DNA of 64,000 nt, from positions 1,774 to 65,773 of IMG/VR virus record IMGVR_UViG_3300045996_002560, one strand, 5' to 3'. Under the pieces are notes generated by a model that saw only the letters and a program-made list of their open reading frames with translations, was not told where the DNA came from and searched no databases. Both the position numbers and the translations under genes were made by a program. This document shows, piece by piece, positions 9,544-61,199 of this stretch (positions within the stretch are counted from its first letter, which is position 1; each line of letters opens with the position of its first letter). This DNA is from a virus (lineage: Duplodnaviria; Caudoviricetes).

Positions 9544-9749
9544 TGTTCCGCAACGTAATCCTATTCCTGGCCATATCAGCCATGCACATCGGGTTCTTGC
9601 TCAGCGCTGTGCTCTTCATCGGCGGCGTCGTCACCCACTTCAGCACGCTTGTCCCGGTGGTGCTGTTTGGATTGATGGCGTGGATTATGTGGGTTCAGCT
9701 TTACTCGATGGTTTACGTACACTTTTTCCCGAGGAAGGATGACCAGTGA
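9540..9749 (+). CDS. Small membrane protein
   Basis: Two hydrophobic segments; coupled to neighbours. Confidence 0.6.
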   Translation: MMFRNVILFLAISAMHIGFLLSAVLFIGGVVTHFSTLVPVVLFGLMAWIMWVQLYSMVYVHFFPRKDDQ

Positions 9750-10270
9750 CCATCTTCTTCACGGCGGATACACACTTCGGGCACCGCAACATAATCAAGC
9801 ACTGCAATCGCCCGTTTGTCTCCGTTGACGATATGCGGGAGACATTGATCGCCAATTGGAACAGCAGGGTGGGCCAGAATGACTGGGTCTACCACCTGGG
9901 GGATTTCGCTTGGAGGACACAGGATGGTGACGTTCTAGACCGTCTGAACGGACGGAAATTTCTAGTTCTTGGCAACCATGATAGCGCCCGCGTGGAGGAA
10001 GCTCGAAGTGGGTGGCTCTACGTGGCTCCCTACATGGAACTCTCCTCGGGGACAGTTAGGAAGATTGTACTCTGTCACTACAAGCTCCAAGTCTGGAACC
10101 AGATGCGCCGCGGGGCAGTCCATCTCTACGGACACTCTCACGGCAACCTACCCGGTTGCCGGCAATCTCTCGATGTAGGGGTCGACAATGTCGGGTTCTT
10201 CCCGATTACGATTGACGAAGCTTTGGAAAGGATGACCCACCATGCTGAATCGCCTGAGCTACTCGGTTAG
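9746..10270 (+). CDS. Calcineurin-like phosphoesterase
   Basis: ADTHFGH, HLGDF, GNHD, GHSH, DVGVD. Confidence 0.9.
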   Translation: MTIFFTADTHFGHRNIIKHCNRPFVSVDDMRETLIANWNSRVGQNDWVYHLGDFAWRTQDGDVLDRLNGRKFLVLGNHDSARVEEARSGWLYVAPYMELSSGTVRKIVLCHYKLQVWNQMRRGAVHLYGHSHGNLPGCRQSLDVGVDNVGFFPITIDEALERMTHHAESPELLG

Positions 10271-20940: not shown

Positions 20941-21203
20941 TTCGTTTCCTCTAGTATGCGCCGCACGCTGTTTAATTTATTCCGGCAATCCTCACCGGCT
21001 GCGTCCACCATAGCAAGGTGGTTCATGACATCTGCGTCAGTGACTATCTGCGCCGACGTGGTGACCGGTCGGGCATTACACGTCAGCAGGTGCCCGCTTA
21101 TCTTAGGGCTTTCCACCTGTATCCTGGTGACTATCTTCGGCTCGGGGCGCGTACAGCTGGTCAATAGCGTCACGAACAAAAGGAGCAGCAGGGCGATCTT
21201 CAT
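20937..21203 (-). CDS. o-spanin (Rz1-like lipoprotein)
   Basis: Signal peptide with lipobox LTSC; LLTC...DC..KL; overlaps the i-spanin. Confidence 0.8.
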   Translation of the reverse strand: MKIALLLLLFVTLLTSCTRPEPKIVTRIQVESPKISGHLLTCNARPVTTSAQIVTDADVMNHLAMVDAAGEDCRNKLNSVRRILEETK

Positions 21204-21504
21204 TGGTTTCTCTGGCACGCTTGGTCCTCCTTGTGACCGCCGCGACTAACTCCTTCTGTCTTTCTGTTGCGTCACGAAGGCGAGTTATCTCTTCGTCCTG
21301 CTTCTTCAGGAAGCGTTGCATCGCCTCCACGGCAGTCTTGTTCGCCTCCGCTACCTCGCTGACCGTCTTGAGCCGCTCCGCCTGGAGGGTGTAGTCAGCG
21401 ACCATCGAACGGATCTGGAGCTTCTGCCATCCTACTGCCACCAGAAGCAGCAGCAGGATGGCTCCGAAGAAGCCCCAACGGTTCATGAACAAGCCGGCTA
21501 TCAT
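21103..21504 (-). CDS. i-spanin (Rz-like)
   Basis: N-terminal TM plus coiled coil; overlaps lipoprotein gene. Confidence 0.8.
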   Translation of the reverse strand: MIAGLFMNRWGFFGAILLLLLVAVGWQKLQIRSMVADYTLQAERLKTVSEVAEANKTAVEAMQRFLKKQDEEITRLRDATERQKELVAAVTRRTKRARETNEDRPAAPFVRDAIDQLYAPRAEDSHQDTGGKP

Positions 21505-24386: not shown

Positions 24387-25912
24387 TATCGGTACACCGA
24401 AAGGTAGGCTGCGGAAGCGACCGCGTTGAACTCAGGCATCGGGTTCGCATAGATGTGATGCCACTGCTTGGTGGTACCCGCCTGGAAGTAACACTCGTAG
24501 AACAAGTGCTCCTCATACTCGTCGAACAGGGCTTTCATTGCCACAATGAAGGGCGCCCTGTTTGACTTGTCGGTCGCAACGAGAGGCAGATTGGTGACGC
24601 CCCACTCGGCAACAGCCCACTTCTTACCACGAGCGCGCGCGAACTTCGCGATGCCTCGAGGCCCAGTCACCATCCCGGTGGTGGTGTTGTAGTCGCCCAT
24701 GAAGCCGTTGGGGTTATCGACGTAGAAGCTCCCGGTGAAGCTGTCGTAGGCGTCGACCGAATAGATGTCCGCGCTCTCCGGAGCCCAGAGGGCCAGCGGG
24801 CGGGTGATGTTGCGCAGGCAGTTGAACTCCAGCACGGCACCCGGCAGCTCGGCACGATAGATAGCGGCGATGCGGTTCCAGCAAGCCTTGTAGGCAGCCG
24901 CCGTCTCGGGCGTGTTCGCCGTCTGCACCGCCCCGTCCTGCCAGCTCCACGGGTAGCCAGCGTTCGCCTCCCAACCGAGACGGATCACCACCATGTTGGT
25001 GCCGAAGATCAGGGCCAGCTTCCTGGCGTTCGCCACGTGGTAGGAGTCGAAGTCACCGCGGGCGCCCTCGACATACTGCCGGGCGTTCGGCAGGCAAAGG
25101 AGGGGCACAGCGATCGTCCAGGGGTTCAGGCCCATGGCGACGGAGTCGCGCAGCAGAGTATGAACCCAGTTGCTCGCCAGCGTAGGCCAAGAGTTGATGA
25201 TCGTGTCGCCCATGAAGGCGCTGTGGATATCGGTCGGGCGTCCACGCCACGCCGCAATCGCGATCTGACCATCGCGTTGGCTGGCGGGTGTGTTGGTCTG
25301 AAGACGGAACCCGGAGCGCCAAGTCAGGCGCGATGCGAACCGATGGACAGGGGCGTCCACCACGGTTGTCATTGCCGTCTCGTTGCGCAAGGTGGCGCCG
25401 ACCGGGTTGGTAAGCGTGACGGCTACAACCTCGTCACCCTCGAGCTTGCGGTCGCCCTTCAGGGCTACCTCGATGCGGGCTTCCTTCTGCCCCTCTGACA
25501 GGGTCAGCGTCCCAGCGGGCAGAACACCACCGAGGAAATCGTCGGCAGCCACGGTGCCGCCCACGCTCCACTCCAACATCACGCTCGGGTCCACATCACC
25601 ATGGCGGGTCACAATGAACGTGACGAACCGTGTCGTATGCTGGTCCTCCGCCACGGTCGGAGACAGGGCAGTAATCTCCAGCTCAGTCGGAGCGCGCATC
25701 GACTTCTCGAGCGCCTTCACCGAAGCCAGAGTCGCCTCCAGGGAGGTATCCTCGTCCTCGTAGTCCGCCGTGCAGTCAGCAACCAGGATGCCCAGCTCAG
25801 CCTTCACCTCGTCGACATTGAACAGCAGCATGGCCTGCCGCTCAACATTCTCTTTCTTCATGGCTTCGAGCTTGCTGATAATCTCAAGCACCTTGTCGTG
25901 CTGCACGGTCAT
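24386..25912 (-). CDS. Calx-beta plus GH26-like glycoside hydrolase
   Basis: GDRKLEGDEVV Calx-beta; IRLGWEANAGYPW, SVDAYD, AVAEWGV. Confidence 0.8.
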   Translation of the reverse strand: MTVQHDKVLEIISKLEAMKKENVERQAMLLFNVDEVKAELGILVADCTADYEDEDTSLEATLASVKALEKSMRAPTELEITALSPTVAEDQHTTRFVTFIVTRHGDVDPSVMLEWSVGGTVAADDFLGGVLPAGTLTLSEGQKEARIEVALKGDRKLEGDEVVAVTLTNPVGATLRNETAMTTVVDAPVHRFASRLTWRSGFRLQTNTPASQRDGQIAIAAWRGRPTDIHSAFMGDTIINSWPTLASNWVHTLLRDSVAMGLNPWTIAVPLLCLPNARQYVEGARGDFDSYHVANARKLALIFGTNMVVIRLGWEANAGYPWSWQDGAVQTANTPETAAAYKACWNRIAAIYRAELPGAVLEFNCLRNITRPLALWAPESADIYSVDAYDSFTGSFYVDNPNGFMGDYNTTTGMVTGPRGIAKFARARGKKWAVAEWGVTNLPLVATDKSNRAPFIVAMKALFDEYEEHLFYECYFQAGTTKQWHHIYANPMPEFNAVASAAYLSVYR

Positions 25913-26628
25913 TATCGCACTTCCTCCTTTTCAGGATTAATAAGCTTGCGCAGACGCTTGTTGCGGCTGGCGATGAATAGGATCACGGCGAAGCTCACGA
26001 CACCGCAGGCGACGGAGAACCAAGGCAGCAGGGTGTCCATGGTGCTCGTCGCGACCACGACATTGTCGTATGTTTGCTTCGCTTCCGGCAGGGAGGCCAT
26101 AATGTCCGGAGCTATCGAAGCCGCAGCGCCGGCAATGCTGGCCACTGCACCGACCACCTTGGCAGTCTTCGTCTTCGCGCCGTTCACCTTCGAGCCGGGA
26201 ATTTGCAGCCCGGCCAGGATCAGACCGGCATCGATGGTCGCGTCGTCGTAAGGCTGGTAGCCCAGCTCGTGCTTGATAATCGCCAGCACGAGTCCACGCA
26301 TGGTGTACCACTCGTAGACATCGGTCGGTGCGTCCGCCGTCCTACCCAGGGACGTGGCCACGGCGTTGATGTAAGCACCGGTGTTGTTCTCGACCGGAGG
26401 CGCCCAGCGGTCGATAATCTCCCGCACGCTGTCGATGTTATGTTTGTCTTGGTAGGTGATCAGCACCCGGCAAATGGCACGGACGCCCCACTTCGGCTCC
26501 GTGAAGACGACAAAGCGAGGGTCGCTCGACTGATCATCAGCCTGACCCTGCCATCTTACTCCGGCAACCCGGTCGATATTACCGGGATTTTTATTCCGCT
26601 CGCCACGAGCGCTGTCACCAGTCGTCAC
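25912..26628 (-). CDS. Putative endolysin (lysozyme-like) with C-terminal TM segments
   Basis: RGERNKNPGNI, RWAPPVENNT..Y, IIKHE.G; hydrophobic C-terminus. Confidence 0.75.
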   Translation of the reverse strand: MTTGDSARGERNKNPGNIDRVAGVRWQGQADDQSSDPRFVVFTEPKWGVRAICRVLITYQDKHNIDSVREIIDRWAPPVENNTGAYINAVATSLGRTADAPTDVYEWYTMRGLVLAIIKHELGYQPYDDATIDAGLILAGLQIPGSKVNGAKTKTAKVVGAVASIAGAAASIAPDIMASLPEAKQTYDNVVVATSTMDTLLPWFSVACGVVSFAVILFIASRNKRLRKLINPEKEEVR

Positions 26629-42747: not shown

Positions 42748-43935
42748 TTAGGCGCCGAAGTCGTACACCGAGCGGGTGTCACCGAACACCAGACGGTAGC
42801 CAACATTCTCAGTCTTGTAGTAGGTGATCGTCTGGTTGCTGATCGAGGTCTCGCTCTCGTTGATCATCGAGCCCGACTCCACCAGCTCCTCCAGCGTATC
42901 CGCCTTCGAGTAGCCAACCAGCTTGTTCGCCGTCATCGTGCTCGACAGGGCGAAGTTGACAGCGCCGGTCAGGAGCGGAGCGCCACCCAGGGCGAAGCCG
43001 GCGCGACCAACATTGTCGGCCTCGGCGGTCACGCTGGACGACGTGGGCATCCACAGGAGCAGCCACTGGATGTAGGCATCCCAGTTGCCAACCACCGTGT
43101 CGATCGGCAGGCCGAGCTTCGCGCGCGACACCAGCCACATGATCAGAGCGGTGCGGTTGATCGCGCCGTTGGTGGTGCCGGAGACGAAGGACGACTGGTT
43201 CACCTCAGGGGCAGCCGCATGAACGCTATCACCGTTGACCAGCAGGCTGGTGGCAACACTCACCTTGCTGATCTCGATCTCGCGCTGCGAGCGGGCAGCG
43301 TAGGGGGTGAGCAGGTCGATACGAGCGCGACGGGCGAACTCGTAGGTGGTACGGTAGCCCATACCATGCTTCCAGATCCCCACGGTGTTGCCCGAGGTGC
43401 GGATCGACCTAACCGGGATGCGAGCACCCTCGGCAATAGGCTGCGCCACCTTGTAGTCCGCAGCGGCATCGTCAACCACGGTCGAGATCATCTCGACGCC
43501 GTTGATCGTGCGCGAGGAGCCGACAAGAGCCGCCGCCTGCTCAATCTGATCCTGACGGTACGCCCACTTGACCATGTCGTCCACAACCTCGGGGAACATG
43601 GCGCGGGTGCCGGGGAAGGTCTGGAAGGTCTCAGAAGCCGCCTCCATGACCACGCCGTGCTCGAACTGGTTGCGAGTCGGCAGGTTCAGGTAGGCAAGGC
43701 TCGCCTCGAACCCATTGAGGAACTGGCCGTTGTCGACATACTTCTCCTTGGTCTCGGAGAGGCGGGGGTCGATCGCCAGGATGAGGTAATCACGCAGGCC
43801 CAGATTGGCCTCGCGGGCTTCAGCAACCAGCTTCATGCCCGCTTCCGCCGACGCGCCGGGGCTGTTGCTCTTCAAAGCGCCGAGGAGAGTCTCAGGCGAC
43901 TTGCGGTTCTCAGAGATTTGAGTAAGACGGGCCAT
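42748..43935 (-). CDS. Major capsid protein
   Basis: 395 aa; IAEGARIP...K.G.G...TYE HK97-fold-like pattern; followed by terminator. Confidence 0.85.
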   Translation of the reverse strand: MARLTQISENRKSPETLLGALKSNSPGASAEAGMKLVAEAREANLGLRDYLILAIDPRLSETKEKYVDNGQFLNGFEASLAYLNLPTRNQFEHGVVMEAASETFQTFPGTRAMFPEVVDDMVKWAYRQDQIEQAAALVGSSRTINGVEMISTVVDDAAADYKVAQPIAEGARIPVRSIRTSGNTVGIWKHGMGYRTTYEFARRARIDLLTPYAARSQREIEISKVSVATSLLVNGDSVHAAAPEVNQSSFVSGTTNGAINRTALIMWLVSRAKLGLPIDTVVGNWDAYIQWLLLWMPTSSSVTAEADNVGRAGFALGGAPLLTGAVNFALSSTMTANKLVGYSKADTLEELVESGSMINESETSISNQTITYYKTENVGYRLVFGDTRSVYDFGA

Positions 43936-44377: not shown

Positions 44378-45493
44378 TTAACCCTTCTTACTGCGATATG
44401 CACTGGCGGTGGTGCTGGTCATGGTGGACTTGAGGTCCGCAGCGGCAACCGCCTTGCCGCCCAGGGGGATGATCGACTTGAGCGCGGCCTGACTGTCCAG
44501 AACCACCTTGATGTGGTCGGCGAGGGAAGCCTCGTTCACGAAGGCCACACCGCTCAGGGGGGCGAACACCTGGGCCTGACCCTTGATGAAACCAGTGGCC
44601 TCGTTCAGTTGGGCCTTCAGCTCGTCAACCGCGGGGTCCTTGGCACCCTTCAGCGCCTCAACCTCAGCCTGCGCAGCGTCAAGAGCGGCCTGAAGCTCCG
44701 TCACCTGAGCCTTCAAGGTGGCCATCTCGTTCTCAGCCAGCTTCAGGGACACCTTGGTGTCCGTAAACTGCACGATCAGGTCGCCAAGCTCAATCGTATC
44801 CGCCATTACATTCATTTCCTTGTTGGACAATCTCAGTATCACACTGCACGGGTCGATACCGGAAGCGGCAAGGCGATGGTTGTTGTCGAATACACTGGTA
44901 GATTTCGAATGTATTCTGGCCTTTTGAGCCCCACCGGTGTTGACCAGGGACAGTTCGGTCCAGCGGTCCAACCCCACCATAACTCCGTGAGTATTACCAA
45001 CACCTAATTGGTGTTCGTTCGCGCAAGTTCCAGAGTAAATGTTATCGAAAGTGCTTTCCCCACCGAAAAAATCCCAACCGCAGTCACTGCACAAGAGCTT
45101 CTCGGAGAGAATGGACACACTAACCTGGTCCACGGTACCACTATCGATCAGCTCAATTTCATCTGTTGCCGACTTCGGCAGGAAAAAAAGCACCCGGAGT
45201 TCCGAAACTCCATTCTTCGTAAACACGTCGCCCGAAAACACGCGCCCTGCGGGCAGGGTGTCGGAGTAGTGCATGACATGCAAGGGCAGGCTTTCCTGAT
45301 TTACCTGCGCTGCCATCGCTTGCAGCACGTCAACTCCAGCAGTAGCCTTCATGAACAGAGGATGACGCTTACGTAGCGGCATCGTGTTCAGAGCAGTAGC
45401 CTCGTAGATCACCAGATCGTCGAGGTTAACATCATCCCCAACGGCAGCCTTCAGTCTGGCAGTTATCTCTGGCGTCTTACTAATCTGCTTCAC
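44378..45493 (-). CDS. Prohead protease / scaffold
   Basis: H...P.GRVF, I.SG....VSV, CSDCG, ELSLV..G; C-terminal coiled coil. Confidence 0.8.
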   Translation of the reverse strand: MKQISKTPEITARLKAAVGDDVNLDDLVIYEATALNTMPLRKRHPLFMKATAGVDVLQAMAAQVNQESLPLHVMHYSDTLPAGRVFSGDVFTKNGVSELRVLFFLPKSATDEIELIDSGTVDQVSVSILSEKLLCSDCGWDFFGGESTFDNIYSGTCANEHQLGVGNTHGVMVGLDRWTELSLVNTGGAQKARIHSKSTSVFDNNHRLAASGIDPCSVILRLSNKEMNVMADTIELGDLIVQFTDTKVSLKLAENEMATLKAQVTELQAALDAAQAEVEALKGAKDPAVDELKAQLNEATGFIKGQAQVFAPLSGVAFVNEASLADHIKVVLDSQAALKSIIPLGGKAVAAADLKSTMTSTTASAYRSKKG

Positions 45494-45555
45494 GGTGTAT
45501 ATTTCATAGTGAATTCTAATAGATCAAGTGGTGTACAGGATGTAAAGTGCGGCGT

Positions 45556-45966
45556 TCATGCAAGTTTTACCGGTGACCGTGCGGTGCTCGGCATCCCTGT
45601 GCGTCTCGGATGGAACACCGGACATTCACCGCGGTCTGACAGCGGGCATTGCAGCTTCTGCAACAGATCAAAGGCACCCTGAAGAGCACTCAATTCCTTC
45701 TCAACTTCCCGAAGGATCTTGGTGTTGTGGTTGACTTCACCACGAAGCGCATAGTTTTCGCCTCTCAGCTCTTCACGCTGTCTTTCCGCCATGTCGTAGA
45801 TGTCGCGAACCGTCTTGTCGCCCAACGCCTCGAGGTCAATCTTGTCCTTCTTACGGGCCACCCGATAGGTGATGAGACCAGCGAAGATGCCACCGATCGT
45901 GGTGGCCAGGGTGCCAGCTAGAGCCAACCCGCCCGGAGAAAACAGAAGTTCAATGGACACGTCCAA
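45556..45966 (-). CDS. N-terminal TM plus coiled-coil protein (holin/antiholin-like)
   Basis: One TM segment, long coiled coil, CP-x5-CP near C-terminus. Confidence 0.55.
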   Translation of the reverse strand: MDVSIELLFSPGGLALAGTLATTIGGIFAGLITYRVARKKDKIDLEALGDKTVRDIYDMAERQREELRGENYALRGEVNHNTKILREVEKELSALQGAFDLLQKLQCPLSDRGECPVFHPRRTGMPSTARSPVKLA

Positions 45967-46447
45967 CCTCCCAGGAAATCAACATCAGGGAGGTCATGCT
46001 TAACGTGGCGAAGGAGCCGTATTGCCACGGAGCCAGTGCGTCAGGAACCGCGGCGGTGGTGAACGTCAAAAAGCTCCAGAACAGAAGCGCCGTCGCCGTA
46101 GCACCGAAGCGCCAGTGACCCCCAAAGCGAAGCGACAGTAGGTGAGCAAGCGCCAGGGATATCAGAGCGGCCGCCCAGACAGGCTGAGGGAGAATGGACA
46201 GCAGCATGTCAAAAACAAGACTTGAGTTACGCTCCATCAAGCCAGGGGTCACCGCCAAGCCGAGCCCCATGGCCAGCGATATGACCCCGAGGCAACACTC
46301 GAACGCAGGGACGCAAAGAATCGCCATCCGGCACAACCGGCACGGCCGCGGGCTGTTGCCCAGGTTCCAGACCGAAAGCAGCGGTCGGAACGTGAAGGCA
46401 ATCGCCGTTCCACCAGCGAGGGACAACAACAATACATACCAGATCAT
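45950..46447 (-). CDS. Multi-TM membrane protein (holin candidate)
   Basis: 4-5 hydrophobic segments; CRLC motif; coupled to both neighbours. Confidence 0.55.
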   Translation of the reverse strand: MIWYVLLLSLAGGTAIAFTFRPLLSVWNLGNSPRPCRLCRMAILCVPAFECCLGVISLAMGLGLAVTPGLMERNSSLVFDMLLSILPQPVWAAALISLALAHLLSLRFGGHWRFGATATALLFWSFLTFTTAAVPDALAPWQYGSFATLSMTSLMLISWEVGRVH

Positions 46448-46797
46448 GTGCTCTCAAACCTTGACCGAGCCCGCCAGAATGCAATAGCCGTCAAGATCGA
46501 GACCAGAGCCATGATGGTGACGATTAACGCGAGGAGATAATATGACCAGGTGCCCACGAACATAGAGAGCACCATTGCGAAGTGTGCCAGCCCACAGGCG
46601 ACCACGAATATTTGGATCAACCGTGTGCGAGAGCGGGTCACGCCCAGCTGCTTGGACGCCAACTGAGTCAGCGACATGGGAATAACCAGATAGGCGATGC
46701 CTGTCAGCACGTGGCCAATGGCCAGCACCCAAACGAGTGCTGGATCGGCGTAGAGACACATAACGTGCGGTGCAAGATCAGCTATGTGGTTCATCAT
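46444..46797 (-). CDS. Stand-alone ETR1-type ethylene/copper-binding domain homolog
   Basis: Three TM helices with PHxxC..P.L.W, IAYLVIP..L, FVVACGLAH, ALVSILTA. Confidence 0.75.
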   Translation of the reverse strand: MMNHIADLAPHVMCLYADPALVWVLAIGHVLTGIAYLVIPMSLTQLASKQLGVTRSRTRLIQIFVVACGLAHFAMVLSMFVGTWSYYLLALIVTIMALVSILTAIAFWRARSRFEST

Positions 46798-46819
46798 TAA
46801 GCCAGTATGTAGTGGCGGT

Positions 46820-46876
46820 TCAATCTAAACCAAGGGTTATAATCAAACGTCTATTGAGCTGCGTGAAGGTGGTCAC
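46820..46876 (-). pseudogene. Remnant of spike-gene start (MTTFTQLNR then unrelated sequence)
   Basis: RBS and first codons match starts at 48878 and 20940; stop after 18 codons. Confidence 0.7.
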
Positions 46877-46886
46877 TTGTTTTCCT
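46865..46886 (-). repeat. 22-bp direct repeat, copy identical to 48867-48888
   Basis: AGGAAAACAAGTGACCACCTTC on minus strand at both sites. Confidence 0.9.
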
Positions 46887-46892
46887 TGAGCA

Positions 46893-48878
46893 TCAAAGCG
46901 GGGAGACACCAACCACGCCGGCCGAGAACGTCACGGTGGCGCCGAGCCGGTTGACGAACATGACGGTGCCGGCATTGGTCGTGCTGACCAGGAACTCGCC
47001 GGCCGAGCCGCTGGCGCTGCTGATCGTGCCGGTGAGCAGGTTGAAGTCCGCATGCTCCGAGATTGCCCCGATGGACGGCGTGCCCACCGTCTTGCAGGCA
47101 ACAACCGCCTGCCGGATTGTCCCGGCATGCACGGCCACCAGCAAAGTGAAGTAGTCGACCGGAGGGCGGAAGATCACCGTGGCGTTGTTGGCGACCGATC
47201 GAGTGATGTAGGTGTTGCTTTCGATCAGCCTGCCATTGCTCTGACAGCCGATCTGGAAACGGGTCGAGCGCGCGACGTTCTCCAGCGGCTCGACATGTCC
47301 GCTCGGCCAAATGGTGAAGTCTTCGAGGAAGTCGGTGCCGTTGTGTGCCGTGAACTCAACTGCGTACTTGCCATAGGCGACCGACTGGCCACTGTCGGCG
47401 CGAACGACATAGCCGGTGATACCCGTGCCGGCGACTAGGCAGCTTGCCCGGATCTTGAGTGGGCCGTGCATGTGGTTATGCCGGCTGGGCGAGGCGTTGG
47501 TGTTGTAGCCGCCGTAGAACTCGTGATTGACCCAATGCCGCAGCTCGTACATGTCGGCATTGATCTTCAGATCGCAGAAGCGGGCCGTGCCGCGCCAGAC
47601 ATCATGTCGGCCTGTCGAATTGCGCACGCGGACATTGCCGACCACGCCATAGGCGGCATTCGAGCAGATCGGCGCGAAGCCGTCCGTGACCGTTGTTGGC
47701 TTGCCGCAATCGATCAGATTGACATTGCTCAGCGAGATTTCGGAAACGGTGCCCTCGGCTACCGGATCGGCCGAGAACTCACCCCAGAGCAGCAGACCAG
47801 CCCACTCCGAGCCTTGCACCACCACGTTGGAGATCAGGCAGCCATTGGTGTAGGCGTCGTTGCTGGTGCCGCCCTCATAGGTGATGCCAATATCGGCATT
47901 CTCGATGAACAGCCCATCAACGATGTTGCGCCGCGGGCCGCTCTGGAGCGAGACGCCCTTGCCGCCGCCGCGACCGATGTCCGAGACGCTCGACAGCAGC
48001 GCCGCGAGATGCGCGCCACCGTGTCGGACATTGCAGATCTTCAGCCCGCCGCCGATGAACAGGCGATAGCCGGCGCCGCCAAGATCGGAGCGACCCGAGG
48101 CGCCGATCGCGTTGCAGTTGCCGATGAAGTTGGCGTCCAGCGTGCCATGGCCGAACACGGCGACATCGACATCGGAGCGGATGCGGACCAGTCCGCCCTC
48201 GTCATCGTCGTTCGCCGCGATCAGGTTGCCCTCGACCTGCAAGGACACGTAGTCCTCCAGGTCGATCTGCACGTCGGCCAGGAGCGTGAACCCGGCGGGC
48301 AGCAACAGGAGCTGCTTCTCTTGCCGCGCCGTGGCGCGCGCCGTTGCCCAGTCGATCATGTCCTGGATGGCACCGCTGGCGCAAGGGCCAACCAGCACAT
48401 CACCAGCCGTGACCGTGGTGAAGGCAGCGGCACTCAACTCGACCGTCGTGGCGTTAGTGACGCTAGCGATCGTCGCCGCATGCGTGGTGGCGCCACCGAC
48501 GCTGAATGTGAAGCTGCGCCCCGCCCCGGCGATCGTCACCCGCTTGCCGACATCAGCCGACGTGAACGAGGCGCCCGTGACGACAAGCGTCGCATCGGCA
48601 GCCGTGATCGCACCCGCCGCCGCGAACTTTTGAACGGCGGCCAGCTCCTCGTAATCGAACGGGGTCACCGCGTAGTCGGTGAGCTTGTCGGCCAAGGTGC
48701 GAGCACGGGGACGCCCCAAGGCTTCATCAGCCGCAAGAGTTAACCCCCCGCCCAGCGTCTCCCGATTAACCTTCCCACTACCACGGGTGCGGCTATCGAA
48801 GCTGATCAGAGCGTCAGAGGGCAGATCATCGTATTCGAGACCGGCGGTTTCTCTGTTGAGCTGAACGAAGGTGGTCAC
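46893..48878 (-). CDS. Beta-helix spike/fibre protein
   Basis: ARTLADKL.D..VTPFDY, AIQ..ID; Gly/Asn-rich beta-helix; N-terminus shared with 18589-20940. Confidence 0.75.
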   Translation of the reverse strand: MTTFVQLNRETAGLEYDDLPSDALISFDSRTRGSGKVNRETLGGGLTLAADEALGRPRARTLADKLTDYAVTPFDYEELAAVQKFAAAGAITAADATLVVTGASFTSADVGKRVTIAGAGRSFTFSVGGATTHAATIASVTNATTVELSAAAFTTVTAGDVLVGPCASGAIQDMIDWATARATARQEKQLLLLPAGFTLLADVQIDLEDYVSLQVEGNLIAANDDDEGGLVRIRSDVDVAVFGHGTLDANFIGNCNAIGASGRSDLGGAGYRLFIGGGLKICNVRHGGAHLAALLSSVSDIGRGGGKGVSLQSGPRRNIVDGLFIENADIGITYEGGTSNDAYTNGCLISNVVVQGSEWAGLLLWGEFSADPVAEGTVSEISLSNVNLIDCGKPTTVTDGFAPICSNAAYGVVGNVRVRNSTGRHDVWRGTARFCDLKINADMYELRHWVNHEFYGGYNTNASPSRHNHMHGPLKIRASCLVAGTGITGYVVRADSGQSVAYGKYAVEFTAHNGTDFLEDFTIWPSGHVEPLENVARSTRFQIGCQSNGRLIESNTYITRSVANNATVIFRPPVDYFTLLVAVHAGTIRQAVVACKTVGTPSIGAISEHADFNLLTGTISSASGSAGEFLVSTTNAGTVMFVNRLGATVTFSAGVVGVSPL

Positions 48879-48892
48879 TTGTTTTCCTCTCG

Positions 48893-50875
48893 TTAAGCCG
48901 CCAGGGCGCCGGTCGATTTGAACACAGGCGGGCTCCAGCTGACCGCCAACCCCGACCCGCTGGCCGTGGTGGCAACGGCAAGGGTGACGGTGCTGCCCGA
49001 GATCGCCACGATTTTGCGCGCGGTCGCGTCGCCGCTAATCAGAAGGTATTGGCCCTTGCGCAGCAGAGTCGTGCTGCTGACCGATGTCAGGCTGGTGCTG
49101 GCCGCGGCTGTGGCTGTGATCGCCAGCGTGCCGACCGTGCCGGGCTCCGTGCAGATCGACTTCCAGTTCGATCCAGCGCTGGGCTCGGCCAGCTGGATCT
49201 CCTCGCCGCGCTCAAAGCTCAGCGCGGTTGCGGTCGGCGTCAAGGAAGACACGAGCCCCTTGGTCGAGGCGCCGATATTAATGTTCTTGGTGTTGGCGCT
49301 GTTCGAGCTGAAATACTGCGGTCCCACAACTGTCCGCGTACCAGCCTCATTGAGGCCATAGCGATGCCGGCGCGAGCCGCTGTCCGTGCCGGAGAAGAAA
49401 TTGCCGACGATGATATTCTCGACACCGGTGTTGCGAATGCCGTCATAGGTCGCGACACTGTCGCCAGAGTTCTGGCCGATCAGGTTGCCGGTCACGATGT
49501 TGCGCAAGCTGGCGGTGGCCAAGTCGATACCGTCGCGCTCCATGCCGGTGATGTTGTTGCCTTGGATCAGGCAGTTCGCGCACTCGACATAGATGCCCTT
49601 GCCGTTGGTGTCCTGGTCGAACCCAGTGATCGTGTTGTTCTGGCAGGAGCCGCCGCTGTCCTCGCCCGATGCCGCGGCCAGGAGATTGATCACCCCCATG
49701 TACGAGTCGGCCGAGTGCCCCCCCTCGCAATTGTAGATGTTGTTCTCGCTGATACGGCTGCGCTTAGTGGTGCCAACGTAGAACCTGACGACCTGATCGG
49801 CCTGGTTCTGCTGCACCTGATGACCATAGTCGTAGGTGCCGCTATCCGTGCCGGGGTCGATCCAGATGCACGAGGCGATGCTGTCCTCTGACTTGATCGA
49901 ATAGGTGGTCGTCGCATCCGGCGTGACCGTCCAGGCATCCTTGACCGTCGCTACCTTGGTCGTCGCGTTGTTCGCGGTGATGACACCCACCTGACCCGAA
50001 CCAGTTCCGCCGGTCAGCGTGATGATCCGGCCCTTGTAGAGGTCCGTCGTGCCAGCGTTGTCTGAAGCCAAAGTGATCGTGCTGGCAGCACCAGCTTGTG
50101 CGGTGCCAGTGACCGCCGTCACGTGCAGGCCGCCGCCGGAGCTGTGGAAGCGGTTGCTGTAGATCCGCTCGCCGCGCTGCGTGTCAGAATTGCCAGCGTT
50201 CGCGGAGGTGGCCGCGGGCTCGACATAGACACCCTGCACGCACCCCGCATGGATGTTCCACGAGTATTCCCAATTGCGGGCGCGGACATCCAAGGAGCGA
50301 TAGAGCCCGAAAAACGCGCAGCGGCTGATCCAGCCGTCCCAGTCGGCGTTGTCGTTTGTGCGGCGGATCTTGACGCCGATGCAGGTGCCACCTTGGCCAG
50401 CGTTGAAGATGTCGCCGTCGCCGTAGAGCTGCATGCCCCAGAGTGAGAAGTTCTTGTACTCGGAAAAGATCAGGTTTTTGCCGGCTTCGACGCAACGTAG
50501 CTGTGGCAGCCGGAACCCCTGCTCACCAATCAAGGTGATGTCGGCGCGCGGGATAACGAGGCAGTTGCCGTCATTGTCGTCATCTGAGATCGAATAGAAA
50601 TACTTCGGCCAGGAAACGAGGTTGTTGGCGGCTGGCGGCGGAAAGTACAGCGAGCCATATTGTGGAACCTGATCGAGTGCCGCCTGAATGCCAGCTGTGC
50701 TGTCGTTTGCGCCGGTCTCGTCAACATCGAAGTCGCGGATATCGACCCGCATCCCGCCGGCCGATATCTTGTCCAAGATGGATCGAGAGATCTGCCCCGT
50801 AGCCGCATCGGCAGAGATCGACAGCGCCGTTGAGCTTAAATCAACCGGTGAGGGGAAGGAGATACGCTTGCCCAT
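48893..50875 (-). CDS. Beta-helix spike/fibre protein (pectin lyase-like)
   Basis: VDIRDF....G.NDSTAGIQAALD..LYFPP; repeated I.GN.I turns. Confidence 0.8.
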   Translation of the reverse strand: MGKRISFPSPVDLSSTALSISADAATGQISRSILDKISAGGMRVDIRDFDVDETGANDSTAGIQAALDQVPQYGSLYFPPPAANNLVSWPKYFYSISDDDNDGNCLVIPRADITLIGEQGFRLPQLRCVEAGKNLIFSEYKNFSLWGMQLYGDGDIFNAGQGGTCIGVKIRRTNDNADWDGWISRCAFFGLYRSLDVRARNWEYSWNIHAGCVQGVYVEPAATSANAGNSDTQRGERIYSNRFHSSGGGLHVTAVTGTAQAGAASTITLASDNAGTTDLYKGRIITLTGGTGSGQVGVITANNATTKVATVKDAWTVTPDATTTYSIKSEDSIASCIWIDPGTDSGTYDYGHQVQQNQADQVVRFYVGTTKRSRISENNIYNCEGGHSADSYMGVINLLAAASGEDSGGSCQNNTITGFDQDTNGKGIYVECANCLIQGNNITGMERDGIDLATASLRNIVTGNLIGQNSGDSVATYDGIRNTGVENIIVGNFFSGTDSGSRRHRYGLNEAGTRTVVGPQYFSSNSANTKNINIGASTKGLVSSLTPTATALSFERGEEIQLAEPSAGSNWKSICTEPGTVGTLAITATAAASTSLTSVSSTTLLRKGQYLLISGDATARKIVAISGSTVTLAVATTASGSGLAVSWSPPVFKSTGALAA

Positions 50876-51197: not shown

Positions 51198-52667
51198 CTA
51201 TTTCACCTTCTTCTTGACATTATTAGATTTGGCGGACTTGGACCCAGGCGAGGCCACGGAGCGACCTAGAGGATCTGAATTGGGGGACACACCTTCGGCA
51301 TCAACTGAAGCAGTTTGAGGCGCCATGAACCCGGTGCCCGACAGCTCGGGTGCATCCGGAAGCGGCAGCCTGCCGTACATCTCGAGGCTGTACTCGATGT
51401 CGCTGATGATGCCGAGGCTCAGGTCCTGCAACAGGCGCGCGGAGCGCATGACGAGCTGGCTCTCCAGCTCCGTCTCCGGTCGCAGTTCCACCGGTCGGTA
51501 GTACACCTCACAGGTGCCCTGGAAACCGTTCAGCTGGAGCAGCAGGCTCAGCATCCCGGACCAAATGTCGGCGATCGGGAAGTTGATGCTGTCGGCGTTC
51601 ATGCAGGCGATGCGGGCCTCAACACTTGCCGTGTTCACACCGCTGTCGCCACGACCGATCGTGGTGGCCAGCACCTTCAGACCAGCCTGGTTCTGTCCGT
51701 TGAGCACGTCGATGACGCTGTCGATGTTCAGCGCAGCGCCCGGGCTCTTCTCGTTGAGGATGGACACCTCGACGGAGTCGGTGTGGATGTACGCTTGGTC
51801 CGGTCGGATCGACCCGAAGCTGCTCTGGATTTCCGCCATGCGGGCATTGACCCACTCGCGGGTCTTCGAGCTGTCCAGCTTTATGTCGGAGGGCACCGAC
51901 TTTTGCAGGATCTCCTCGACAACCTTGATGTCCGTGCGGGGGAATCCGGTGATCCGCATGATTCGGTACAGGTCGTTGATGACCTGTTGGCGCGCAGCCA
52001 GTGTGTTGATCGCTGCAACGAACGGCGAGTACGTGTAGACCGAGGTGGGGTCGCGACGATAGAAGGAAACGAAGAAGGTCGGGATGTCCAGGTTAATCTT
52101 ATCGTTCGATCCCTTCACCACCTGAAGCGGCTTGTACTGGCCCGGGTTCTTCTCCACCCATTCCAGGCTGGCCGGGTCGACCTGACGCACCTCAGAAGGA
52201 ACACCCTGCTTGTTGAACACCAGCTCGGCAGCGATCATGCCTCGCATGAGCAGCATGGTCCGCATGTCGGCGTCGATGGACTCCCGGCTCTGCTTGAGCT
52301 GGAAGCCCAGGGAGTAGTCGAGCCGGTTGGTCAAAACGCGGATGTAGTCATAGGCCAGCTTGGTGGCGTCGGCGTCGATGACGCCCTGGAAATCACGCGC
52401 CAGGATGACCGGCTCGGTGTTGGCAAGGGTGAGATACGAATGAAAAGCGGCGGAAACGTCGGGGTCCGTCTTCATCAACTGCTTGATGAGTGCCCGACTG
52501 TCTTCCGCCGCACGTGAATCAAAAATATCAACAAGATGTTCACGGTATAATGGTGCCGTTACGATACCAGTCGTGCTTCCCCGGTCGTACGTCCCTGTAT
52601 AACCAGTGCCGCCGCTCTTGTTTGTCTTTTTCGGAGCTATGAAATTCAGGAAATTTTGCAGCGCCAT
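51198..52667 (-). CDS. Portal protein
   Basis: 489 aa directly after terminase; helical; DPDVSAA, Y..SP...A. Confidence 0.8.
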   Translation of the reverse strand: MALQNFLNFIAPKKTNKSGGTGYTGTYDRGSTTGIVTAPLYREHLVDIFDSRAAEDSRALIKQLMKTDPDVSAAFHSYLTLANTEPVILARDFQGVIDADATKLAYDYIRVLTNRLDYSLGFQLKQSRESIDADMRTMLLMRGMIAAELVFNKQGVPSEVRQVDPASLEWVEKNPGQYKPLQVVKGSNDKINLDIPTFFVSFYRRDPTSVYTYSPFVAAINTLAARQQVINDLYRIMRITGFPRTDIKVVEEILQKSVPSDIKLDSSKTREWVNARMAEIQSSFGSIRPDQAYIHTDSVEVSILNEKSPGAALNIDSVIDVLNGQNQAGLKVLATTIGRGDSGVNTASVEARIACMNADSINFPIADIWSGMLSLLLQLNGFQGTCEVYYRPVELRPETELESQLVMRSARLLQDLSLGIISDIEYSLEMYGRLPLPDAPELSGTGFMAPQTASVDAEGVSPNSDPLGRSVASPGSKSAKSNNVKKKVK

Positions 52668-52718: not shown

Positions 52719-54437
52719 TTACAAGTGGAAGAGACCCCTGTTCTGACGCTTCAAGGCTATGATACCGTCCGGAATTGTCGTGACCTGCGCTCCACCGAAA
52801 CCGACAGTGGTTCTGACGTCCTCGCCATTGAGTTCGTCGATCGCTCCCTTCAGCCGAATGGCGAACAGGTAGAAGGAAATCGCGTGGAAGTAGTGGTCGC
52901 CACCGGTCAGTTTCTTCCATACCGCGGGTTTCTCCGGCGTCTCATCCCGGATGAGGTCTCTTAGATGGTCGATCACCGTCCGGCGCTGCTCGCGGTAGCC
53001 TTCCATGCGCAGCGCACGCTTCCGGATGATCTTGCTGACCTGATCCAGGACCTGGGTGCGGTTGCATTGGACGTGGGTGATCGATTCGTACTCGTCCTTG
53101 ACGAACGAGAGCGGGGCCACGCCACGATATTCGACCGGCATGACGCGCCCGTTGGAGAGATGACGCAGATTGTCGGCGTCGTTGGTGTAAGGATGACGGT
53201 CCACCGTGCCCATGACCACCCGGTACTGGCGCAGGAACTGATCGACGCGGGCCTCGAGATCGGCGATCTGACACGTCTCCATGAGGAAGATCCCCTTGCC
53301 AGGGGTGCCCAGCACGATGTGACAGGTGAGACCAACGTCAATCCCGATGAAAACCGGGTCGTCCGAGCTGATTTCCGGCTGCGCCGGGGCGCCCATGCAG
53401 GCGATGATGTCCTCCTCGCTCAGCCGGATGTTCGAATCGGTGTAGGACTCGCCCAAAACGGTGTTGTACCAGCTGCGAAGGTTGTCCTGGTCCTTCGCTT
53501 TGAGCAAACGCCCGAAAATGTACGGGATGGTGAGCCGGTGGGTCGAAAATGGCCGCACCCGATAGCCCCGCTTGAGAATTCGGGACGGATAGGCAGCCAC
53601 CCACTCCCTTTTTGACGGGTCCGTCAGGTCCAGCGGGCTCCGGCACTTCTCACAGCACACATAGGCGTTGAGAAGGTCGGTTTTCTCCATGATTTCGGCA
53701 TCGACGGTCGAAAAATCCTCCAGATCGTGCGGTAGACCCTCGATTTGGATGAATTTCGGCATGAAAAGGGGCACTTGCCGCAGGTTGCAGGCGTCGCAGC
53801 GGACAAAATATTCCCGCTGGTCGCTGCTCTCATATTCCCGATCGATCCCGACGCCGGTGAACGTCGGCGTGCTGAACGCCTGTGTCATCTTCAGATCGGA
53901 GTTCTGAAGCCGGGACTGGAACAGGGCGATCATCTTTTCGTCGGACAGGTCCAGCTCGTCGTGGAACAGGATGTCCAGCGGCAGCGAGGTGGCGTCCTTT
54001 TCCGTGCAGCCGGTGATGTAGAGGAAGCTCTGACCGATCTGGACCACGCCCACGGTGCGCACCGCCCCTTGATCGCTGTCCAGGTTGAACACGCGGTCCT
54101 GCTCGAGGATCGGACGGAACCGGGTCTGGCTCATCCGCTTGAACATCTCCTCGAACGGCAGTGAGAACAACGCGTTGACGCCGCTGGAGCGCTTGAGCAG
54201 GCCCAGAATTTTCCGGATCTGGACTTCGGACAGGCCGACCTGGGAGCATTTGATGCAGGCCAGGTCCGGGTGCATGTCGTCGACGATCGCTTGCTGGAAC
54301 TCATAGCCCCGATACGAGAAGGGGCGCCCCTTCATGGTCGTGTTTTTGGCCACCCATTGGGACATCGAGATAGTCTCGCGGTCCTCCACGTACCGGTTCT
54401 GCATTTCGGTGAGGAGATTCGAAATCAAAAGGTTCAT
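52719..54437 (-). CDS. Terminase large subunit (GpA-like)
   Basis: KCSQVGLSE, Walker B ILFHDELD, FSTPT, CxxC pairs, IGIDVG, DHYFHA. Confidence 0.9.
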   Translation of the reverse strand: MNLLISNLLTEMQNRYVEDRETISMSQWVAKNTTMKGRPFSYRGYEFQQAIVDDMHPDLACIKCSQVGLSEVQIRKILGLLKRSSGVNALFSLPFEEMFKRMSQTRFRPILEQDRVFNLDSDQGAVRTVGVVQIGQSFLYITGCTEKDATSLPLDILFHDELDLSDEKMIALFQSRLQNSDLKMTQAFSTPTFTGVGIDREYESSDQREYFVRCDACNLRQVPLFMPKFIQIEGLPHDLEDFSTVDAEIMEKTDLLNAYVCCEKCRSPLDLTDPSKREWVAAYPSRILKRGYRVRPFSTHRLTIPYIFGRLLKAKDQDNLRSWYNTVLGESYTDSNIRLSEEDIIACMGAPAQPEISSDDPVFIGIDVGLTCHIVLGTPGKGIFLMETCQIADLEARVDQFLRQYRVVMGTVDRHPYTNDADNLRHLSNGRVMPVEYRGVAPLSFVKDEYESITHVQCNRTQVLDQVSKIIRKRALRMEGYREQRRTVIDHLRDLIRDETPEKPAVWKKLTGGDHYFHAISFYLFAIRLKGAIDELNGEDVRTTVGFGGAQVTTIPDGIIALKRQNRGLFHL

Positions 54438-58145: not shown

Positions 58146-58280
58146 GGTGGTAGAGGAGTGCTTAAGGTAAGCAGTCAAGGTATAGTCACATCTTCCTAGC
58201 TCAAGCCTAGCTTGGACCAAGAGGAGAACTGTGACCAACGCCTACCTGCTTAAGTTAAGCAAATCACAAGGAATTCTAAG

Positions 58281-58916
58281 ATGCCCGAGATTGCGATGGT
58301 CCACTCGATCGACAACGTGAAGATCGAAAAGTTCTTCGTGGCGTACGCCACCAAGGCCAACAACGTGATGTACAACGCAGTTGCCAATGCCACTGCGGCG
58401 ATCCTCAACATGACACCCAAGAAGCTCAAGATCCTGAGGGAGAACCTGGTCTACAAGCATGGCGCGCCGAAAGGCACGATCGATCACGCGTTCGCGATCG
58501 CGAAGAACCTGGCTCCTCTGTGCGAGCAGGGTGCCAAGGATGCGTCTAACCATGAGGACGCTATTCGCTCGATCATGACGTACCTGTGCCAGCGCAAGGG
58601 TGACGTGCTGCTGACGTCGGGCAAGATCGAGCGTGGCGAGGAAAGCCTGTCCTGGGCCAGCCTCAAGGCGGACCTGTCCCCGGACAGCAACAAGGGCAAG
58701 GCTGCTGCTGATCCCAAGCCGGGCGAGGTGGTCGAGGTCGAGGTCCCTGCAACCGAGACACCCGCATCCGACGTCCCCTTCGTTCCGGTCACGGCACTGG
58801 AGGCCATCCTCGCCTCCCTGCCTTCGCTGTCGACCGAGGATCTCAACATCCTCCTGGATGAGGTGTCCCGTGCGGTGCTGGCTAGGGACAGCCACGTCCT
58901 GGCCGCAGCCGCTTAA
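58281..58916 (+). CDS. Hypothetical early protein
   Basis: RBS AAGGA; strongly biased codons; flanked by palindromes. Confidence 0.8.
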   Translation: MPEIAMVHSIDNVKIEKFFVAYATKANNVMYNAVANATAAILNMTPKKLKILRENLVYKHGAPKGTIDHAFAIAKNLAPLCEQGAKDASNHEDAIRSIMTYLCQRKGDVLLTSGKIERGEESLSWASLKADLSPDSNKGKAAADPKPGEVVEVEVPATETPASDVPFVPVTALEAILASLPSLSTEDLNILLDEVSRAVLARDSHVLAAAA

Positions 58917-59851: not shown

Positions 59852-60034
59852 ATGTCAGACCCGCAGTTGTGGCAACGGAGCGAGCATCCGTTGCATGTGA
59901 GCAGCATCCAGCGAAAGGAGGCATGGCAAGAGGAAATTCGAAAGCTGACCGTCAATTCGCTTGCAACGGCACAACGTCGGGCCGAGCATAAGCGTCGTGG
60001 TGGTCGCACTCTCTATCCAACCATGGGAAGTTGA
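59852..60034 (+). CDS. Small basic hypothetical protein
   Basis: RBS GGAG just after palindrome. Confidence 0.5.
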   Translation: MSDPQLWQRSEHPLHVSSIQRKEAWQEEIRKLTVNSLATAQRRAEHKRRGGRTLYPTMGS

Positions 60035-60035
60035 A

Positions 60036-60167
60036 ATGACCAACAGGCAAATCGTTACCTGGTCGATTGTGGCCAGTGCATTTATGGCTCTATCGTATCT
60101 CGCAGCCTTTCTGTCATTCGTGGCATTGGTCACATGGGTGGTCAAGCGCGTCTGGCTAGGAGTATGA
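60036..60167 (+). CDS. Small TM protein, paralog 1
   Basis: MTNRQ...YLA..LS.VAL..WVVKRVWLGV. Confidence 0.6.
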   Translation: MTNRQIVTWSIVASAFMALSYLAAFLSFVALVTWVVKRVWLGV

Positions 60168-60371
60168 ACATGCCTATCAAACCATGGGAAGTTGAAATGC
60201 GCCTTCCAAGACTAGGTTCCAAGTCCGTCCTAGCCCTGTATTTATTGGGGGCTGTGAGTATCACTCTAGCCTACCTCGCAACCATTCTGTCAATCGTGGC
60301 CTTGATCGCATGGGTGATCGCACGGGTGGTCAAGCTCGTTTGGCTAGGAGTATGAACATGCCTATCAAACC
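60153..60371 (+). repeat. 31-bp direct repeat (60153-60183, 60341-60371) from tandem duplication
   Basis: TGGCTAGGAGTATGAACATGCCTATCAAACC occurs twice. Confidence 0.9.
60197..60355 (+). CDS. Small TM protein, paralog 2
   Basis: MRLPR...YLA..LS.VAL..WV...VVKLVWLGV. Confidence 0.6.
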   Translation: MRLPRLGSKSVLALYLLGAVSITLAYLATILSIVALIAWVIARVVKLVWLGV

Positions 60372-60555
60372 GGGTGATGAGTTTATGGGCGATTGATCGA
60401 TAAGCTTGCCCTATCGAAACAAAGAAATCTCATAGGAGAATACGATGTCGACCAAGAAAAGCACCGATTTCTACGGTGACTGAATAAGAAACCGTGACTG
60501 CGTCGAGAAATTCGGGGCTCCACCCTAAAAAACATAACACAAGGAGTCCGAGAAG

Positions 60556-60696
60556 ATGAGCAACACCGTCAAAAGAACCAAGACTGACAATGAATTCTAT
60601 CCCCGTCGTACCAGGGCAGAGGCAGCTAAAGTAATCGCGAAGATGCGAACTGACGGAAAGCGGTTCCTTCGCGTGGAGCTGCGCCAGTTCAACTAG
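60556..60696 (+). CDS. Small basic protein (46 aa)
   Basis: RBS AAGGAG; followed by hairpin 60705-60731. Confidence 0.55.
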   Translation: MSNTVKRTKTDNEFYPRRTRAEAAKVIAKMRTDGKRFLRVELRQFN

Positions 60697-60750
60697 TTAC
60701 CCCTGAGCCCGTCCCATGATGGGACGGGCTCCCACCCTAAGGAGTGAGTT

Positions 60751-60846
60751 ATGTTCTGGCTTTACGTCGGCATGGTCTACGCCGCCTTGTTGGTGGCAAT
60801 AGTCCATTTTGTTCATCAAGCGACCTACGGGGAGCCCGACGAATGA
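60751..60846 (+). CDS. 31-aa single-TM peptide
   Basis: RBS AAGGAG; MFWLYVGMVYAALLVAIV...; ATGA overlap. Confidence 0.5.
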   Translation: MFWLYVGMVYAALLVAIVHFVHQATYGEPDE

Positions 60847-60953
60847 TTATGTACATCGCGGAGTTCATCACAGCCACTGTCATGACGATCGTAGCTGTTG
60901 GGATGATGACAGCAGCCGTGCTGCCGCCGATCATGTACTGGTTTGGAAACTGA
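60843..60953 (+). CDS. 36-aa single-TM peptide
   Basis: RBS GGAG; hydrophobic. Confidence 0.5.
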   Translation: MIMYIAEFITATVMTIVAVGMMTAAVLPPIMYWFGN

Positions 60954-60995
60954 TCCGGCAGGATTCCCTGCGGGATAACCGAGGGGAGTTCTGCC

Positions 60996-61199
60996 ATGGA
61001 AGTTATCGGACTGGCTGCATGGATTGTTGCGGCGATCATCCTGTTTGTCGTAGGAGGTTATCTCCTGGTGTATCTCATCGTGATCGTCGCCATGCCTTTC
61101 GTCGCCATTTGGACAGGAATTCAGTGGGCCGTGAAGAGGTACAAGGGTAGGACTGAAAATGGACAACCTCGACGACCAGCTGCAAACCGTCAGCCGTGA
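60996..61199 (+). CDS. Small membrane protein
   Basis: RBS GGGGAG; long hydrophobic stretch. Confidence 0.6.
   Translation: MEVIGLAAWIVAAIILFVVGGYLLVYLIVIVAMPFVAIWTGIQWAVKRYKGRTENGQPRRPAANRQP

Follow-up and report, generated by a model that had tools for sequence, protein, structure and literature searches.

An ETR1_N domain protein without an output domain in the late operon of a siphovirus, and its possible role in lysis control

In plants and bacteria the ethylene-binding domain is familiar as the input part of signalling receptors, and the locus described here raises the question of what use a bacteriophage might make of such a domain when nothing is attached to it. The locus lies in a 64,000-nucleotide stretch of DNA (the window; positions 1,774 to 65,773 of IMG/VR record IMGVR_UViG_3300045996_002560), which covers nearly all of a linear siphovirus contig of 65,773 bases with a CheckV completeness estimate of 78%. 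It consists of three overlapping genes on the minus strand (the cassette; Table 1), the first of which encodes a protein of 117 amino acids (aa) that a preliminary description had likened to the ethylene-binding domain of the receptor ETR1. We report that this product is almost certainly an intact, output-less member of the ETR1_N family, i.e. a membrane domain of the three-helix copper-site type, and that its gene is phage-encoded and located in the late structural operon. As to its role, we favour a late membrane module in lysis control, not a hormone relay, and give this reading a probability of roughly 40%.

In Pfam the 117-aa protein matched PF25487 (ETR1_N) with 46.8 bits and an E value of 3.8e-12 (cut-off 27), and the match spans residues 21-110 of the protein and positions 2-90 of the 97 in the profile. 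A six-frame search of the genome with PF25487 gave 46.4 bits at the same gene, and PHROGs and NCBIfam returned nothing for the protein. An exhaustive phmmer search of 1.84 billion representatives yielded 703 relatives at E ≤ 1e-3; the homology, earlier proposed from a by-eye comparison of short motifs, is thus far beyond chance. In many of these relatives the domain is N-terminal and the whole protein has 300-1,100 residues, and approximately one third of the 150 listed relatives (of the 703) have 205 residues or fewer. The three open reading frames are as first described, and the motifs on which the comparison was built are present at the residues given for them (PHVMC at 10-14, IAYLVIP at 34-40, FVVACGLAH at 64-72 and ALVSILTA at 97-104, together with His29).

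Residue conservation was taken from an alignment of 52 relatives. His11, Cys14, Cys68 and His72 are invariant (52/52), and Pro10, Pro19, Tyr36, Ile39, Pro40, Phe64, Gly69, Tyr86 and Ser100 are at least 90% conserved; position 65 is Val in the 117-aa protein, in a column with Ile in 47 and Val in five of the 52 sequences. The correspondence to ETR1 residues follows from this family alignment combined with the mapping in the preliminary description, without a direct alignment to ETR1. On that basis the protein keeps Tyr36, Ile39 and Pro40 as the equivalents of ETR1 Tyr32, Ile35 and Pro36, which together with Ile62 we take to be ethylene-binding residues, the numbering being that of the same description. 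Moreover, Cys68 and His72 sit on helix 2 at the positions of ETR1 Cys65 and His69, whose roles as copper ligands are described in PMC10266040.

An AlphaFold2 model computed with the family alignment as input (predicted local distance difference test, pLDDT, 88.1; predicted template modelling score, pTM, 0.75) has three long helices, 19-47, 55-81 and 83-114, and the distribution of charges points to an N-out/C-in topology. When the model was compared with the BFVD structures, the sole significant match was a 289-aa viral protein (template modelling score 0.79 by query, E 9e-4), presumably the Maribacter phage protein Colly1_63 considered below since the two have the same length. A sequence search of the PDB gave no solved relative, and a profile search of the same database gave two unrelated matches at E 0.61 and 0.88. 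The stand-alone character of the protein was confirmed: it stops after the ETR1_N domain, 45 residues past His72, with a charged tail and no output domain, and the gene that follows is in another frame and encodes a membrane protein without a domain match.

Comparison with the ethylene receptors (ETR1/ERS1, SynEtr1 and AzoEtr1) reveals both common and divergent features. Common to them are the three-helix membrane domain, the helix-2 Cys and His one turn apart, Tyr-x-x-Ile-Pro on helix 1 and, for the bacterial members, the N-terminal Pro-His-x-x-Cys. The 117-aa protein differs from the receptors in having no GAF, PAS, kinase or other output domain, in being encoded by a phage in a late operon, in carrying His in place of Asp25 and Val in place of Lys91, and in a turn between helices 2 and 3 that is two residues longer. 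Both substitutions, of which the first and the loss of the second had been noticed before, are borne out by the family alignment: His29 stands in a column with 33 Asp, 11 Asn, seven His and one Glu (n = 52), and Val93 in one with Lys in 25 of the 52 relatives. For ETR1, Asp25 is reported to be critical for copper/ethylene binding and to be present in 93.55% of 1,221 related sequences, with Asn in 3.67% (PMC10266040). Exchange of Asp25 for Ala abolishes ethylene binding and exchange for Asn reduces the affinity, and Lys91 is described as bridging to Asp25 and handing the signal to helix 3 (PMC10266040; PMC11971883).

The loss of this pair is commonest among the short forms. Among the aligned cores of the 150 listed relatives, both Asp and Lys remain in 69 of the 98 long proteins, in 17 of the 25 of middle length and in six of the 27 short ones. 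All six of these short forms fall inside a large clade of long proteins in a quick tree, and at least one of them, P0017, bears the name of a longer protein ('GGDEF domain-containing protein'). The longer turn between helices 2 and 3 is present in nine of the 150, all of 117-145 aa, and in none of the 98 long proteins (eight of the nine were recognised by residue spacing and one, P0046, by alignment). The tree was built from 150 of 153 rows, P0047, P0051 and the Colly_1 protein having been dropped when the motif filter found no core in them. In it the 117-aa protein is not part of the clade of 115 rows (88 of them long) that has 95% support; its place is in the remaining 35 rows, 19 of them short. 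The short label changes 12 times on the tree, the mean after shuffling being 25.1, and the short forms are not resolved into one clade. On the Asp and Lys counts, the longer turn and the tree position, the 117-aa protein belongs with diverged, mostly stand-alone relatives in which the metal ligands are kept and the relay pair is largely lost. That short forms keep the copper ligands and mostly lose Asp and Lys bears on the published model of how binding is coupled to output in ETR1.

Close relatives were sought in several collections. A word-index search at near length recovered only the protein itself among 19 candidates, none of 257 candidates scored in a search among longer proteins, and a scan of IMG/VR with the 117-aa protein gave no relative. 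No match to the locus was obtained by megablast (8 kb) and tblastn against 50,697 GenBank phage records. The relative P0002 was sought in viral and metagenome contigs, and P0069 and P0026 in viral contigs; none of the three was found there.

Other members of the family led to two further phage lineages. With three family members as tblastn queries against the GenBank phages, 8 records gave the domain, all of them Maribacter phages (Colly_1 and Molly_1 to Molly_5). The Colly_1 protein, Colly1_63 (289 aa, annotated as hypothetical), matches PF25487 with 59.9 bits; a gene for a 148-aa single-pass coiled-coil protein overlaps it upstream and an Amidase_3 endolysin gene follows directly after it. 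A motif scan of IMG/VR identified one contig, G403, encoding a 127-aa PF25487 protein (54.4 bits) that is approximately 30% identical to the 117-aa protein. There, a gene for an 84-aa single-pass coiled-coil protein overlaps the start of the domain gene and one for a 98-aa protein of the same kind overlaps its end, and the group has on one side a Phage_lysozyme2 gene accompanied by small membrane genes (one DUF7940) and on the other a lipoprotein gene and the small terminase gene. The Colly_1/Molly and G403 proteins resemble the 117-aa protein in being phage-encoded PF25487 members without a signalling domain, each overlapped by a single-pass coiled-coil gene. In the two lineages the domain gene is in or beside the lysis cluster, whereas the 117-aa gene is between spike-like and head genes, 20 kb from the endolysin gene; Colly1_63, moreover, has an extra C-terminal part of approximately 165 aa and lacks the N-terminal His and Cys. 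We found no description of such phage ETR1_N proteins in the literature searched. The preliminary description, which knew of no phage system like this one, was right to that extent, but cultured Maribacter phages do carry a homologue that has gone unremarked.

As a separate observation, the genes at 6425-9510 of G403 form a cluster of lysis type in which, unusually, four or five genes for small single-pass coiled-coil or membrane proteins follow one another between the Phage_lysozyme2 gene and a lipoprotein gene, with the ETR1_N gene in their midst. The small membrane family DUF7940, represented next to the lysozyme gene of G403, was not found in the phage record studied here.

The two partners of the 117-aa protein in the cassette are orphans. 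The 117-aa and 165-aa genes have the ATGA stop/start at 46444-46447 in common, and the 165-aa gene in turn runs into the third gene, in agreement with the overlaps first described. For the third gene, the start GTG 45960 (134 aa) is more likely, judged from the sequence, than TTG 45966 (136 aa), because it lies six bases after GGGAGG, whereas TTG 45966 directly abuts that site; we retain the name 136-aa protein. A simple Kyte-Doolittle scan gave approximately four to five hydrophobic segments in the 165-aa protein, with the CRLC noted earlier in the first loop. No family was found for it in Pfam, PHROGs, NCBIfam or PADLOC; a search among 924 candidates returned only itself, and tblastn gave no match in the 50,697 phage records. 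In language-model features its nearest neighbours are unnamed, mostly viral clusters of similar size (0.90), which we treat as a lead only. The cysteine motif of the 136-aa protein is CP-x6-CP (CPLSDRGECP), correcting the spacing of five given before, and the charges flanking its helix suggest an N-out/C-in topology. Searches of Pfam, PHROGs, NCBIfam and PADLOC gave no named family for this protein either, only weak PHROG matches to unnamed families (phrog_3671, E 2.7e-4); no relative was detectable, one coiled-coil match having E 0.3, and its nearest clusters in language-model features are unnamed, mostly viral and of similar size (0.96/0.95), again a lead only. In architecture it is similar to the 98-aa partner in G403, with a weak sequence match (BLASTP E 0.017, 22% over 73 residues). 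The neighbours had been called holin-like; since searches gave no family match and no detectable relative for either, we use that term only as a description of hydrophobic segments. Complex prediction for the three proteins, with the 117-aa protein as the scored partner, gave 0.00 in both runs, in which the controls did not fold, a score that bears on binding in neither direction.

The 136-aa protein was also considered as a spanin and rejected: it matches no spanin PHROG and is not needed as one, because this phage has an overlapping i-spanin/o-spanin pair of the Rz/Rz1 type elsewhere (20937-21546).

Table 1. Coordinates in the window of the cassette, the lysis genes and the surrounding late genes
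Feature	Coordinates	Strand	Remarks
Three-gene cassette (117-aa ETR1_N gene, 165-aa gene, 136-aa gene)	within 45556-46797	-	late operon
117-aa stand-alone ETR1_N membrane protein	46444-46797	-	PF25487 match; three transmembrane helices
165-aa multi-pass membrane protein	45950-46447	-	no known family
136-aa single-pass coiled-coil membrane protein	45556-45966	-	C-terminal CP-x6-CP
Orphan copy of spike-gene ribosome-binding site and start	46850-46886	not assigned	direct repeat of 48852-48888
Endolysin-type muralytic protein	25912-26628	-	phrog_873 'endolysin', E 7.2e-58, residues 4-217
i-spanin	21103-21546	-	phrog_89 Rz-like spanin, E 2.9e-6
o-spanin lipoprotein, overlapping the i-spanin	20937-21218	-	phrog_456 Rz-like spanin, E 3.4e-8
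Large terminase	52719-54437	-	late operon
Portal	51198-52667	-	late operon
Two spike-like genes (approximately 660 aa each)	48893-50875 and 46893-48878	-	adjacent, between portal and cassette
371-aa scaffold-like gene, then 141-aa gene		-	late operon beyond the cassette; scaffold-like: phrog_37797
Major head protein	42748-43935	-	late operon
Tape-measure-sized gene, 1,625 aa		-	late operon; called by size
Lambda-type tail-tip genes		-	late operon; tail L, NlpC/P60, tail I; 1,105-aa gene next

The cassette shares its strand with the terminase, portal, capsid and tail genes, with short gaps in between, and the lysis cluster belongs to this minus-strand late operon as well. The two spike-like genes next to it have no Pfam or PHROG match. 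A scan of 45300-47100 for promoters and terminators gave no signal above shuffled controls, and the composition gave no sign of foreign DNA. We count the shared strand with its short gaps and the result of the promoter and terminator scan in favour of a late membrane or lysis role. Just before the cassette and just past the stop of the second spike-like gene (661 aa), that gene's ribosome-binding site and opening codons recur as a direct repeat of 37 nucleotides with 89% identity; on the minus strand the copy opens a dead-end frame of 18 codons. In sequence terms this repeat looks like the mark of a recombination seam.

What, then, might the cassette do? The lysis genes of this phage provide one line of evidence. 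The endolysin-type protein, for which Pfam gave no match, has a hydrophobic segment (residues 199-223) followed by a charged tail at its C-terminus and may be a membrane-tethered muralytic enzyme; adjoining its gene, in the same cluster, are 508-aa and 961-aa genes without a family match. As noted before, no holin is visible beside it: there is no small membrane-protein gene among the endolysin-type and spanin genes of this phage, and its holin must therefore be elsewhere, the cassette being one candidate in the late operon. We count this combination, an apparently anchored endolysin-type protein and spanins with no holin in the lysis cluster, in favour of a lysis role. A second line is by analogy, with Colly_1 and G403, in which an ETR1_N gene together with a single-pass coiled-coil gene is part of a lysis cluster and which thus support such a link.

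In the reading we favour, the 117-aa protein would be made late, from the structural operon, and would be co-translated with the multi-pass membrane protein and the single-pass coiled-coil membrane protein. Its site of action would be the inner membrane of the host, within a late membrane module that governs the lysis lesion or contributes to its formation; the part it plays there would be that of a holin, an antiholin or a partner of the pinholin type. No ethylene signal would be relayed to a kinase, and the copper/thiol site would be a structural or a redox- or metal-sensitive element. In a study on rice (PMC13261662), plant receptors of this family are said to conduct Ca2+ as dimers. Plant receptors of the ETR1 family are likewise reported as Ca2+-permeable dimers in bioRxiv 10.1101/2025.10.20.683334, and for that reason ion leakage through an ETR1_N domain is conceivable.

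Class I holins such as lambda S have three transmembrane helices in an N-out/C-in arrangement. The 117-aa protein resembles them in size (approximately 100-120 aa), in its three helices, in its short charged cytoplasmic tail and in late expression, as these features are predicted here; it differs from them in having no holin family match, in not being adjacent to the endolysin gene and in fold matches only at E > 0.3.

Several observations weigh against a role in lysis. The cassette is approximately 20 kb from the endolysin and spanin genes, and none of its three proteins matches a holin family or a lysis PHROG (Pfam, PHROGs). In the BFVD fold search, holins appeared only at E 0.38 or worse, and other small membrane open reading frames of the phage, for example 58250-58429 on the minus and 9540-9749 on the plus strand, are possible holins. 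The link with lysis comes from two other phage lineages only, and the three-gene arrangement, whose conservation had been proposed as a check, is not conserved: in the nearest related phage found, which is 42% identical in its scaffold-like protein, the stretch from portal to scaffold is occupied by other genes, the cassette is absent and PF25487 has no match. The orphan gene start before the cassette would fit a recently swapped-in accessory cassette as well as a core lysis gene. Finally, in a bacterium the short type of the domain is coupled to a kinase (see below), which points to signalling rather than lysis.

A separate observation concerns the lower-GC (guanine-cytosine) end of the window (58250-58429 on the minus and 59961-61199 on the plus strand), where several tiny open reading frames have one or two hydrophobic segments each; 59961-60167 and 60134-60355 have almost the same sequence at their end. 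These are alternative holin or exclusion candidates.

The lysis reading can be extended to a more specific proposal, which we consider quite unlikely as it stands: short output-less ETR1_N proteins and their single-pass coiled-coil partners would form a new class of phage lysis control, in which a copper-thiolate membrane domain taken over from gas receptors gates the lesion or sets its timing according to copper, redox state or a small unsaturated gas, and the cassette would be the missing holin system for the anchored endolysin.

Among the other explanations, interference with host signalling is rather unlikely in our view, and it draws on a bacterial parallel. Once inserted in the host membrane, the short domain would pair, alone or together with the coiled-coil protein, with a host ETR1_N sensor kinase or single-pass kinase as a decoy, dominant-negative subunit or adaptor and so alter host behaviour during infection. 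The genome of Sabulicella rubraurantiaca encodes a stand-alone PF25487 protein of 146 aa (66 bits), the gene of which overlaps a kinase gene by ATGA; the 275-aa product of the latter combines a single membrane helix with a coiled coil and a histidine kinase domain of the HWE type (HWE_HK, 69.6 bits). From its sequence, this pair (scaffold 9989-11253) is a predicted split receptor in which the short type works with a separately encoded membrane partner; the same genome also encodes a canonical form of 512 aa (140.9 bits). The ETR1_N domain is present in 30 of 401 sampled genomes of the same class, and hosts with such partners therefore exist; five of the 34 matches in those genomes are in open frames of less than 200 aa, one of them at a contig edge. 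The 117-aa protein, at 46.8 bits, scores far below the canonical bacterial members (80-146 bits for 31 of the 34). ETR1 itself works as a dimer (PMC10266040), which counts in favour of this reading. The Sabulicella and phage arrangements have in common a short domain with the same type of turn and a gene overlap with membrane genes that include a single-pass coiled-coil protein. They differ in that the phage has a multi-pass gene in between and that its coiled-coil protein has no kinase or phosphotransfer domain and gives no BLASTP alignment to the Sabulicella kinase. Interference also has to contend with the position in a late operon, where little would be gained from rewiring host signalling, and with the fact that the bacterial example is a single one.

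A by-eye likeness of the 136-aa protein to the H-box phospho-acceptor helix of HWE kinases was examined separately and rejected, there being no Pfam kinase match and, as mentioned, no alignment to the Sabulicella kinase.

Somewhat improbable, too, is an accessory membrane cassette that was swapped in at a recombination seam and has a role unrelated to lysis, such as superinfection exclusion, envelope modification or copper handling. The orphan duplicated gene start directly upstream, the different genes at this position in the related phage and the orphan status of the neighbours are consistent with such an origin, and the four conserved His and Cys residues suggest metal binding. However, no PADLOC defence model matched in this phage, exclusion genes are usually early or prophage-expressed and not placed inside a late structural operon, and the recurrence of the domain beside lysis genes in two other phages speaks for a link with lysis.

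The preliminary description had itself proposed that a working sensor of ethylene (or another gas) and copper times lysis on a plant-derived cue. Cys68/His72, Tyr36, Ile39 and Pro40 are kept, the bacterial homologue AzoEtr1 binds ethylene (PMC11819568), and the two other phages provide a lysis-cluster link. This proposal is nevertheless weakened, because the equivalents of Asp25 and Lys91 are His and Val; in addition, nothing connects this phage to plants, and a plant cue is unlikely for Colly_1, whose host is a marine Maribacter. We regard it as very unlikely.

That the gene is a non-functional remnant, i.e. a drifting 5' piece captured from a host sensor-kinase gene, is hardly credible: it does cover only the N-terminal domain of usually long proteins and sits at a mosaic junction, but the long protein closest to its product among the 150 listed relatives, P0003, shares 41% identity with it, which argues against a recent kinase fragment, and all invariant family residues are intact, the reading frame is uninterrupted and finishes with a charged tail, translation is coupled to the next gene, the special turn is shared only with the short relatives among which the protein groups, and the third-position GC of 0.68 is like that of the other listed open reading frames of the window.

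Returning to the favoured reading of a late membrane module in lysis control, an output-less phage version of the domain that is made late and together with membrane proteins suggests a second use of the fold apart from hormone relay. If the lysis role is true, a protein with a metal site joins the holin-type factors, and the 117-aa protein, being small and easy to express, would offer a model for a domain that has defied experimental structure determination. Should the protein instead act on a host sensor, it would represent a phage tool to tamper with a bacterial gas-sensing pathway.

Elsewhere in the window, on the early strand, three membrane-protein genes stand in a row (6986-8623, plus strand). 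The product of the first (174 aa) has a weak MotA/TolQ/ExbB match just under the cut-off (21.6 bits vs 22.9), and the trio may represent a phage-borne module of the proton-channel type.

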